Shown here piece by piece: positions 41,803 through 44,581 of a stretch of 64,000 nucleotides of DNA. The notes beneath the pieces are model-generated. The model ran no database searches. It was not told the DNA's origin and saw only the letters and a list, made by a program, of their open reading frames with translations. Both the position numbers and the translations under genes were made by a program. The first letter of the stretch is position 1. The number at the start of each line of letters is the position of its first letter. The stretch lies in the NCBI RefSeq assembly GCF_041146345.1, contig NW_027191411.1, positions 868,001 through 932,000 on the forward strand, read 5' to 3'. The stretch is from Neodothiora populina. Its lineage: Eukaryota.

Positions 41803-42625
41803 GCCTAGCACGGCATCTCCAAAAAGCCAATTAGTTCTCTGACTCAATACGGAGAATAGCAAGCCAATAGACAAAGCTATCGATTTGGAGTTCCGCGGAA
41901 GACAAGGCGACGGGCGACAAAGAATAGTCAATGGTTACCTGATCGATCACAGCAGAGGCGACAGAGGATCATACCGGTTGTACAATACAGCAGCAATAAT
42001 ACGTCAATGATGTATGATGAATAGCCATTCACCTTAGTAATGGACAGATAATTAGATGGTATGATCGGTGCCAAGGCATCACACAGCTATGACCGGCCCA
42101 AGCTTTTAGAACAAGAGCACAGGACGGAAGAATAACGATGATAATATGATTGATTGTGATTATTGCAAGGTGGAGGTTGCGGTACGCTACTTGAATGCTA
42201 CGAGGCTACGCTACCCACGCAACGCCTGTCCAGCCTCCCACTCACTGCGCGTAACTGTAACTGTAAACCTATAACTCTATCAAATACACTGTGGATTTCA
42301 TCACCATCAATCTTCCATTCCGCAGCATTCCTGCATCCTCACTCCATCAACCACTCTATCACACGTGTTTTCCTGAATCGCCGTCTTTCAATTCAGATAC
42401 TTCAATCATCACAATATTCATCAGGTCCACTGATTCTGTCATATCTGCTGTACATTTGCAAGCAATTGTCTGATTGTGCTAACACGCGCATTCCTCAAAG
42501 TCCGCAAGCAGCCACTTTCTCTTTGTTCCCTTCTCACAACGCGCCGACTGACTTTTCTTCTTGCAACAGTGGCCGGCGTCAAATACATTAAGAAGACTCC
42601 CAAGGAGCAAGAGTCGGCAGCAGAA

Positions 42626-44581
42626 ATGCCTCCCAAGAAGTCTGCTGGCGCAGCACCAACGCGTGTCTCAGCGCGCCAGGCCGCCGATACGAAACCTGAA
42701 GCAAACACCAAAGCAAAGGTCGCGAAGCCGACCACCAAGCCTGCTGCCACTACTGCAAAGTCGACCGCGAAGGCTGCCGCAAAGGCTCCTGCAAAGGCTC
42801 GCGGTAGACCCAAGGCTACTGAGACAGCTACTAAGACCACGACAAAGACTGCTGCTAAGACAGCCACCAAGGTCACCAACGGCACTACTACTACTACTAC
42901 TACTACTACTACCAAAAAGGCCGCTGCTGCCACGAAAGGTGTGTTCGACACTTTCTGCCCCTTGCGCTTCCTCCGCCTTGCAATTCACCTACTAACAAAG
43001 CTCTCCTCCAGACGCACCCAAGAAAAAGGCTGGACGGCCGGCCAAGAAGGAGGCTTCTGAAGAACCCGAGAAGAAGCCTGTCGTTTCTAGAAAGCGAAAG
43101 GCCACCGAAGAGCCCGAAGTGGCTCCCGCCAAGAAGGCAAAGGTCGTTCCAAAGGGCCCCGTCATCAACACAGTGCCCAAGCAGCCGCTGAACGTTTACG
43201 TCTTCGGAGAGGGATCATCTGGCGAACTGGGTCTCGGCACGGCCAAGAATGCCATTGACGTGAAGAGACCCCGTCTGAACGCAAACCTCAATGCCGACAG
43301 TGTCAGTGTTGTCCAGATCGCCGCCGGTGGCATGCACGTCGTCGCTCTGACCAAAGACAACAAGATCCTGAGTTGGGGAGTCAACGACCAGGGCGCTCTG
43401 GGCAGAGACACCGCCTGGGAAGGTGGTTTGAGAGATATGGACGCTGCCGAAGATTCCGACTCGGATGACGACAGTGATGCCGGCCTCAATCCCAAGGAGA
43501 GCACTCCCACCGCCATTCCCTCAGACAGGTTCCCCGAAGACACTGTGTTTGTGCAAGTCGCCGCCGGTGACTCCACCTCATTCGCCCTTACTGATGACGG
43601 TCAAGTTTGGGGCTGGGGCACTTTCAGAGTAAGTCTTTGTCGCTATCAACTGCTTGTCATAGATCACTAACACATTCGCCTCAGAGTAACGAAGGTATCT
43701 TCGGCTTCACCCAAGACGTCCTCGTCCAACGCGAGCCCATGCTCATCCCCGGTCTGAAAAAGGTCACCAGCATTGCTTGCGGCGCCAACCACACTCTGGC
43801 TCTCGACTCGAATGGTGCCGTGTTCGCGTGGGGCTCTGGTCAGCAGAACCAGCTCGGCCGCCGTGTCGTTGAGCGCACAAAGACCCAGGGTCTAGTGCCT
43901 CGTGAGTTCGGTCTTCCCAAGAAGGCCATCAAGTACATTGCATGCGGAGATTACCACTCGTTCGCCATCGACAACAAGAACCGTGTTTGGACATGGGGTC
44001 TCAACAACTACGGCGAGACTGGCATTGCCGACAACGCTGGCGAAGACGATGCTGTTGTCCTCAGACCCGAGGTTGTGACTAGCCTTTCCGAGAAGACCAT
44101 TACATGCATTCAGGGCGGTGGCCACCACTCCATTGCTGTCACTGATAATGGCGACTGTTTGGTCTGGGGCCGCATCGATGGTCACCAGATGGGTATCAAG
44201 ATCTCCGATCTACCTGACGACGCCACCATCAAGGACCAGCGTGGTTCTCCTCGCATTCTTGCCGTTCCCACCAAAGTCACTGCCATTGACGGCAAGGTCG
44301 CATTCGCCACTGCCGCAAGTGATCACTCCATCGCCATCACCGATGACGGACGTGCCTATTCCTGGGGATTCTCCACCAACTACCAGACCGGTCTTGGAAC
44401 CACCGACGACGTCGAGGTGGCCACTCACATTGACAACACTGCCACCAGAGGCAAGAAGCTCAACTATGCCACCGCCGGCAGTCAGTTCAGTATCTTGACC
44501 TCGCCCGCCGAGGAGGCTGCGGCGGCACCATCAACAGAGGCAGAGGCGCCCAAGACCAACGGTGTCAATGGTACTGCTTAG
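42626..44581 (+). CDS. PIM1: RCC1 / Ran guanine exchange factor (Pim1/Prp20). Exons 42626-42938, 43012-43628, 43685-44581; possible 19-aa N-terminal extension (see findings)
   Basis: Lys/Ala/Thr-rich N-terminal tail followed by RCC1 repeats (GELGLG, IAAGGMH, SWGVNDQGALGR, IACGANH, WGSGQQNQLGR, WGLNNYGETG, YSWGF). Two canonical introns. Confidence 0.93.
42884..42910 (+). repeat. (ACT)9 coding microsatellite giving poly-Thr in the RCC1 tail
   Basis: Read directly from the sequence. Confidence 0.9.

Follow-up and report, generated by a model that had tools for sequence, protein, structure and literature searches.

How can a protein begin with a methionine where its gene holds no contiguous ATG? 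The question is raised by a plus-strand gene of the fungus Neodothiora populina, which lies in the 64,000-nucleotide stretch analysed here (contig NW_027191411.1 of assembly GCF_041146345.1, positions 868,001–932,000 of the forward strand; termed the window, and numbered from its first letter). This gene is the species' RCC1/Pim1/Prp20 orthologue and encodes the exchange factor that acts on Ran. The public record holds two isoforms under one locus tag, one of 608 amino acids (P0002; XP_069199656.1 in its source) and one of 627 amino acids (P0136; listed by its source as XP_069199655.1). A preliminary description of the locus had proposed that an upstream ATG is assembled by a [D1,2] spliceosomal twin intron (stwintron), removed in two steps, and that the choice of splice route could switch between a short isoform and an extended one. 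Here, we argue that the start codon of the long form of RCC1 in this Dothideales fungus is probably split A|TG by one ordinary spliceosomal intron, at 42500–42569. The earlier interpretation is partly supported: the spliced in-frame ATG, the conserved extension, the two isoforms and the match to a methylation motif all stand, but the stwintron as the mechanism does not, since a single intron suffices.

What do the letters at the site allow? All of the motifs lie where the preliminary description had placed them, namely A42423, G42424, GTCCAC at 42425–42430, GCTAAC at 42478–42483, an AAG ending at 42500, TCCGC at 42501–42505, ACTGAC at 42547–42552, a CAG whose last base is 42569, TGGCC starting at 42570 and ATG at 42626–42628. 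The features around the start codon are listed below; loci designated L are RCC1 loci in metagenome contigs, and proteins designated P are deposited models.

42290–42499, plus strand: putative leader (exon 1), pyrimidine-rich and ATG-free; it must extend to the donor that supplies the A, and its 5′ boundary is putative.
42425–42500, plus strand: candidate internal intron of 76 nucleotides (GTCCAC...GCTAAC...AAG), which may belong to the leader, be a region with an alternative 5′ splice site or be an internal intron.
42499, plus strand: A of the split start codon in the single-intron reading.
42500–42569, plus strand: putative intron 1, 70 nucleotides, splitting A|TG, with donor GTCCGC (42500–42505), branch element ACTGAC (42547–42552) and acceptor CAG (42567–42569); homologous introns are predicted in L001–L005.
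42570–42625, plus strand: TG of the start codon and 18 codons, AGVKYIKKTPKEQESAAE, forming the extension at the N-terminus of the long isoform; it matches the beginning of P0136 exactly and is conserved at the codon level.
42626–42628, plus strand: internal ATG in the context GAAATGC, start of the 608-amino-acid isoform MPPKK and of P0002.

At the junction CAG|TGGCC (42567–42574), a TG lies directly 3′ of the splice site and codon 1 has no contiguous ATG; the genomic sequence is devoid of ATG between 42195 and 42626. The sole A|GT within 500 nucleotides upstream of the acceptor is 42499|42500, the next being 42036|42037, and joining A42499 to T42570 gives CCTCAAATGGC. Splicing in silico assembles an upstream ATG in frame with RCC1 that adds MAGVKYIKKTPKEQESAAE before MPPKK, as had been claimed, and the predicted extended protein is identical to P0136, which was found in the 90%-identity cluster of the window's protein and starts MAGVKYIKKTPKEQESAAEMPPKK. 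This first ATG and the 627-amino-acid product are reached by either of two routes: a twin route, in which 42425–42500 is removed and then G42424 together with 42501–42569, or a single step that removes 42500–42569 alone, a caveat that the preliminary description had itself entered and that holds. One-step removal of 42425–42569 leaves only a GTG, also as described, and the product is then the 608-amino-acid protein from MPPKK, identical to P0002; the unspliced leader likewise leaves a GTG and yields the same 608-amino-acid product. Another reading that had been offered, a micro-exon TCC followed by a GC donor (42504), was rejected because it forms no ATG and is unsupported. When the first 40 in-frame residues were used as a query, only one of 36 candidates (longer proteins) matched, the organism's own 608-amino-acid protein AAFC00_006775 (P0002), which matches the window from MPPKK onward.

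How, then, would the two proteins be made? Exon 1 would be the ATG-free leader ending in A42499, and the intron would be removed by way of GTCCGC, ACTGAC and CAG, bringing A42499 next to the TG at 42570 to form an AUG in good context (CAAAUGG) from which the 627-amino-acid protein MAGVKYIKKTPKEQESAAE-MPPKK would be translated. Were the intron retained, or were CAG|GTCCAC at 42425 spliced straight to 42569, no upstream AUG would arise and the first AUG, at 42626, would give the 608-amino-acid form. The weak donor would lead to partial splicing and so to both isoforms, whose N-termini presumably differ in modification or function. Gene finders that work ab initio leave start codons whole, and updaters that draw on transcripts take canonical splice sites only. 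A split start codon in the deposited 627-amino-acid model is therefore most likely the mark of a transcript-based model with a GT–AG intron, and because 42499|42500 is the sole A|GT within 500 nucleotides, only 42500–42569 fits as that intron; this suggests that 42500 is the donor actually used.

Several observations weigh against the single ordinary intron. Its donor is weak, with G at +5 but C at +3, +4 and +6, and GTCCGC is absent from the list of 24 donor hexamers given in the available part of PMC9024468. The other two introns of the gene use GTGTGT and GTAAGT. As a small substitute for donor statistics of the species, an orthologous RCC1 intron was compared over 64 rows (24 with the intron, 39 without and one spurious), and its donors carry G at +5 in 24/24 and are on the 24-hexamer list in 22/24. 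That 42500 is the donor of the annotated 627-amino-acid isoform is something we infer. No RNA read was seen across any of the junctions, and the only contig from public runs that matches the 2.8-kb stretch (193 nucleotides, 42250–42442, 100% identity, word depth 4.4) comes from a run labelled as probably DNA; it covers none of the coding region and bridges no junction because it reaches only 18 letters past 42424. Lastly, the occurrence of CAG|GT at 42424/5, a perfect GCTAAC and an AAG before the donor is rare by chance (16 to 157 of 20000 randomizations, detailed below) and is left unexplained by a single intron. As a separate observation, the confinement of the public-run contig to the leader is not expected from uniform DNA coverage.

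Is the extension a genuine part of the protein? A search with the full-length protein returned 2198 proteins at E ≤ 1e-30 (7997 candidates scored), and counts of homologues here refer to the best 120 of the 2198, which are fungal RCC1/Pim1/Prp20 proteins. The motif [MV]A[GQ][VI]KY[IV]x occurs within the first 90 residues of 18 of these 120. Seven of the models start MAGVKY, and their sources name Myriangium, Sphaceloma, Elsinoe, Elasticomyces and a Dothideomycetidae; seven have MAQ[IV]KY, and the sources here name Zasmidium, Pseudocercospora, Dothistroma, Fulvia and Cercospora; the remaining four of the 18 have V at the position expected for M. A scan of metagenome contigs found the extension motif encoded in 12 of 80 RCC1 loci. 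Over codons 2–10, six loci that, like the window, have GTG at codon 1 differ from it by 3, 3, 5, 3, 3 and 6 synonymous changes and 0 nonsynonymous changes. Over codons 2–9, pairwise comparison of all 13 sequences gives 247 synonymous versus 24 nonsynonymous differences, the pairs not being independent. Conservation of the MAGVK extension in orthologues had been proposed as a check, and the extension does prove to be conserved in Dothideomycete orthologues under purifying selection at the codon level; these comparisons indicate that it is a translated peptide, the window's own lineage included. Two read-through models, P0059 and P0066, read VAQIKYIK with V instead of M (the source names Lecanosticta acicola for P0059 only). 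Following these two models, a split start codon may also be present in the Mycosphaerellales, and several models from that order that start M[AP]PK[KR] may hide an extension that was missed.

What stands at codon 1 in the relatives? In six loci (L006, L007, L042, L067, L068 and L072), codon 1 is a contiguous ATG that no acceptor precedes, in ordinary contexts such as caccATGG. In the window and six other loci (L001–L005 and L055), codon 1 reads GTG, the first G of which closes a YAG acceptor. Upstream sequence is present in five of these six relatives (L001–L005), and all five have in-frame stops 3–4 codons before the GTG, making read-in translation from upstream impossible. Each of the five has one canonical donor preceded by A, 102–115 nucleotides upstream of the acceptor: A|GTATGT in L001 and L002, A|GTCAGT in L003 and L004, and A|GTGAGT in L005. 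A branch-type element lies 10–18 nucleotides upstream in four of the five, found by scan in L001, L002 and L004 and by eye in L003 (CCTGAC); L005 reads CCTGAT, and the scan listed no branch element there. These five loci fall in a 90%-identity cluster with proteins that their sources name Aureobasidium melanogenum and A. pullulans, and the combination of A-preceded donors and YAG acceptors indicates that this Aureobasidium-like clade has a start-codon intron between A and TG.

The Aureobasidium-like loci also hold tandem A-preceded donors, with A|GTGAAG 9 nucleotides upstream of A|GTATGT (L001 and L002) or of A|GTCAGT (L003 and L004), and L005 has its A|GTGAGT at the upstream position of the pair (L001:3890–3904, L003:3499–3513, L005:2517–2522). 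From this arrangement, the donor seems to have shifted without losing the A required for the start codon. At their N-termini, the RCC1 models deposited for Aureobasidium come in three versions. P0135 was reproduced at 58/58 residues by an upstream ATG exon and a 283-nucleotide intron with an A-preceded donor (L003:3285–3623), and because the donor is preceded by A, the Met in its ...RDA-M-AGVKY comes from the same assembled A|TG; in P0129 the residue at codon 1 is L, and P0125, marked partial, starts at a Met far downstream. These divergent N-termini look like the workarounds of gene finders faced with a split start codon.

Homology of the window's leader and intron to the Aureobasidium-like introns was considered and rejected, as upstream of the acceptor the MAFFT alignment cannot be relied on and short-word BLAST returned only chance matches of 11–17 nucleotides. 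A match to CATTCCTCA that had been seen by eye was rejected on these grounds, and with it falls the argument for 42425–42499 as ancestral intron sequence. That a 3-nucleotide deletion destroyed an ancestral A|GTGAGT at 42424 is pure speculation. Further upstream, the words TGTGGAYTT ... TTCATCAYCAA are common to the window (42291–42312) and to L001, L002 and L005, about 220 nucleotides before codon 1, and CGGGAGTTGGCG, further upstream still, is common to L001–L005; these shared words may be promoter elements.

What might distinguish the two N-termini? The preliminary description's idea of two isoforms fits the deposited 627- and 608-amino-acid proteins, and its suggestion that the short form carries a methylatable PPK end agrees with the motif of the N-terminal methyltransferase NTMT1. 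According to the available part of PMC4691889, substrates of NTMT1/NRMT1 begin XPK, where X is S, P, A or G, with human RCC1 beginning SPK and mouse RCC1 PPK. After removal of Met, the short isoform starts PPKK and conforms to [S/P/A/G]-P-K, which makes it a predicted substrate. A start of the type M[SPAG]P[KR] is found in 65 of the 120 homologues and looks ancestral. Among the 18 homologues bearing the extension, five have an internal M[SPAG]PK 19–21 residues after the first residue; in the window, the distance is 19. The Aureobasidium-like loci have Ala (GCG) aligned to the window's internal Met and strong donors, whereas in the window the Met is retained and the donor is weak. This contrast would fit partial splicing that gives both forms, although it comes from two lineages only.

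Could the start codon instead be built by the [D1,2] stwintron? In that scheme, 42425–42500 would be excised first, rebuilding the donor GTCCGC, and a second excision would join A42423 to TG, possibly alongside the single-intron route. We consider this unlikely, but much about the site resembles a stwintron. As set out in the available part of PMC9024468, the [D1,2] search model demands G1, U2 and G5, with 24 donor hexamers (each of which accounts for over 0.6% of the genuine donors in the set employed there), branch elements of the form DYTRAY, HAG acceptors and set spacings. The letters are arranged as required, G42424 | 42425–42500 | TCCGC, with the internal intron separating G1 from U2 of the donor, and both branch elements, both acceptors and all four spacings fit that model: GCTAAC lies 14 nucleotides before AAG and ACTGAC 14 nucleotides before CAG, the gaps from donor to branch element measure 47 and 41 nucleotides, and a relaxed pattern that allows any GTNNNN donor matches at 42423. 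The product would be the same 627-amino-acid protein. Given the intron at 42500–42569, randomizing the leader yields a twin route to that ATG in only 157 of 20000 mononucleotide shuffles and 16 of 20000 Markov resamplings; AGGT is an infrequent word in this G-poor leader. CAG|GT is a good exon-side context for a donor, and 76 nucleotides is a typical length for a fungal intron. If used, the donor at 42425 would probably lead to 42500, by way of the nearest branch element and the first AG.

Against the stwintron stand its donors, which the preliminary description had rightly cautioned are both non-consensus. The internal donor GTCCAC has A at +5 and so fails the obligatory G5 of the model, while the rebuilt external donor GTCCGC has G5 yet is non-canonical, being neither 5′-GURWGY nor one of the 24 hexamers, the list of which includes neither donor (PMC9024468, in the part available). 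The strict version of the pattern, with the 24 hexamers, and the version that demands G5 both fail to match the site. GTCCGC is needed in the twin and single-intron routes alike. Two excisions are unneeded, as removal of 42500–42569 alone gives the identical protein. None of the five relatives with upstream sequence has the twin pattern (0/5), and each has one canonical intron in its place. Sister copies of the 76-nucleotide piece are found neither in the window nor among the 80 loci, where a repeat or introner-like origin was looked for. Across the window, the relaxed pattern occurs 14 times versus 20.4 ± 4.3 in 40 first-order Markov simulations, which is chance level; the version that forms an ATG is observed once, against 0.35 expected. 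The net junction of the twin route, GG..AG, is of a kind that annotation pipelines normally reject, yet the 627-amino-acid isoform was deposited. The claim that a stwintron makes the ATG is not borne out.

A broader form of the idea would make the leader a nested-intron switch, with 42425 a real 5′ splice site: joined to 42500, it would build the AUG as a stwintron with atypical donors, and joined to 42569, or with the intron retained, it would give the methylatable PPK form. Such a switch would be one version of an N-terminal switch kept by several Dothideomycete lineages, in which the extension is followed 19–21 residues later by an internal MXPK. We regard this as doubtful. An intron finder based on bridging open reading frames was also tried in the window and dropped, because its 411 candidates were mostly false. 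A fold prediction gave a z-score of −0.02, and no RNA family was matched above threshold; a match to Rfam sR2 (archaeal C/D-box) at 42372–42416 on the minus strand, with 20.2 bits against a gathering threshold of 42 and E = 0.048, was taken as chance.

Could translation dispense with splicing altogether? The GUG at 42569–42571 of an unspliced leader might serve as a near-cognate initiator of the extension; its surroundings in the window are favourable, A standing at −3 and G at +4, and all seven split-type sequences have GTG at codon 1. This is nevertheless very unlikely, as the G always ends a YAG acceptor, branch elements stand 10–18 nucleotides before codon 1 in the window and in 4/5 relatives with upstream sequence, an A-preceded donor lies upstream in 6/6 sequences with enough upstream DNA, the intron-less relatives have ATG rather than GTG, and the deposited isoform starts with M. 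It is equally hard to credit that the extension is a relic in this species, with only the 608-amino-acid MPPKK form being made and the 627-amino-acid model an annotation artefact. The weak donors and the good context of the internal ATG would suit such a relic, but a relic would drift, and codons 2–10 differ from those of the nearest relative, L055, by 3 synonymous changes and no nonsynonymous one, with the same pattern in five further loci; this constraint counts against it. Least credible of all is that a 533-nucleotide leader intron brings in the A from a distant donor, A|GTAATG (42036|42037), for although this donor is the only other A|GT within 600 nucleotides upstream of the acceptor, it is without G5, the intron would be about five times the length of those in the relatives (102–115 nucleotides), and it would place the pyrimidine-rich, ATG-free 42196–42499 inside an intron, leaving the lack of ATG unexplained.

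With the single ordinary intron as the preferred explanation, the remainder of the gene is completed by three further features.

42939–43011, plus strand: intron 2 of RCC1, which has the donor GTGTGT and, as its branch element, TACTAAC; its removal is required for exact P0002 and P0136.
43629–43684, plus strand: intron 3 of RCC1, with donor GTAAGT.
43685–44581, plus strand: last coding exon of RCC1, stop codon included.

Within the coding region, (ACT)10 at 42884–42913 codes for ten consecutive threonines within the low-complexity, K/A/T-rich N-terminal tail of RCC1, and 42874–42921 was passed over as a repeat in read mapping.

Why would a split start codon in RCC1 matter? If both N-termini are made, the splicing efficiency of one weak intron would set which form of RCC1 the cell gets: a short form with an XPK end, or a long form capped by a conserved 19-residue tail. 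The XPK end of animal RCC1 is methylated and is needed for chromatin binding (PMC4691889, in the part available). If true, this would provide a testable link between splicing and control of the Ran gradient in fungi. There is a practical lesson too, in that split start codons defeat gene finders, and many of the listed RCC1 models from Dothideomycetes take the internal Met as their first residue. Since the public record already holds both isoforms of the locus, what is gained here is interpretation, not discovery; the spliced ATG and the two isoforms hold.

How does this arrangement compare with known systems? Phrase searches of the literature, in the portions of it that are accessible, turned up no report on a start-codon-building stwintron or on the RCC1 extension. 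The site resembles the [D1,2] stwintrons of Pezizomycotina, as the available parts of PMC9024468, PMC12403724 and PMC5587772 describe them, in its order of G|GT...branch...HAG|T...branch...HAG and in its matching elements and spacings. It differs from them in that both RCC1 donors fall outside the donor set of the family, the two-step route is unneeded, and the loci searched contain no orthologous or sister copy. The short fungal isoform, PPKK after removal of Met, is like mouse RCC1 (PPKR; PMC4691889, in the part available) and is a predicted target of methylation, but unlike the substrates of NTMT1, the long isoform would bury its XPK motif 19 residues inside the chain.

Introns in or right after the start codon form a known, if uncommon, class, which the RCC1 case appears from its sequence to fit; in Yarrowia lipolytica, 42 introns have been grouped whose 5′ splice site follows a nucleotide of the start codon (PMC13309789, in the part available). 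As with other introns that split a start codon, the RCC1 site would have a U2-type intron inside codon 1 and an AUG only in the spliced RNA, and its intron-less orthologues have a contiguous ATG. Unlike the known cases, there is a second in-frame AUG 19 codons downstream, itself a start of the ancestral type (MPPK), so that a failure of splicing gives a shorter protein rather than none; also unlike them, the intron sits in RCC1 and is conserved across Dothideales relatives. Human RCC1 has alternative N-terminal isoforms that arise by alternative splicing of 5′ exons. The two genes are thus alike in that splicing at the 5′ end alters the N-terminal tail, but in the human gene this is achieved with cassette exons and here, probably, by creation of the start codon itself.

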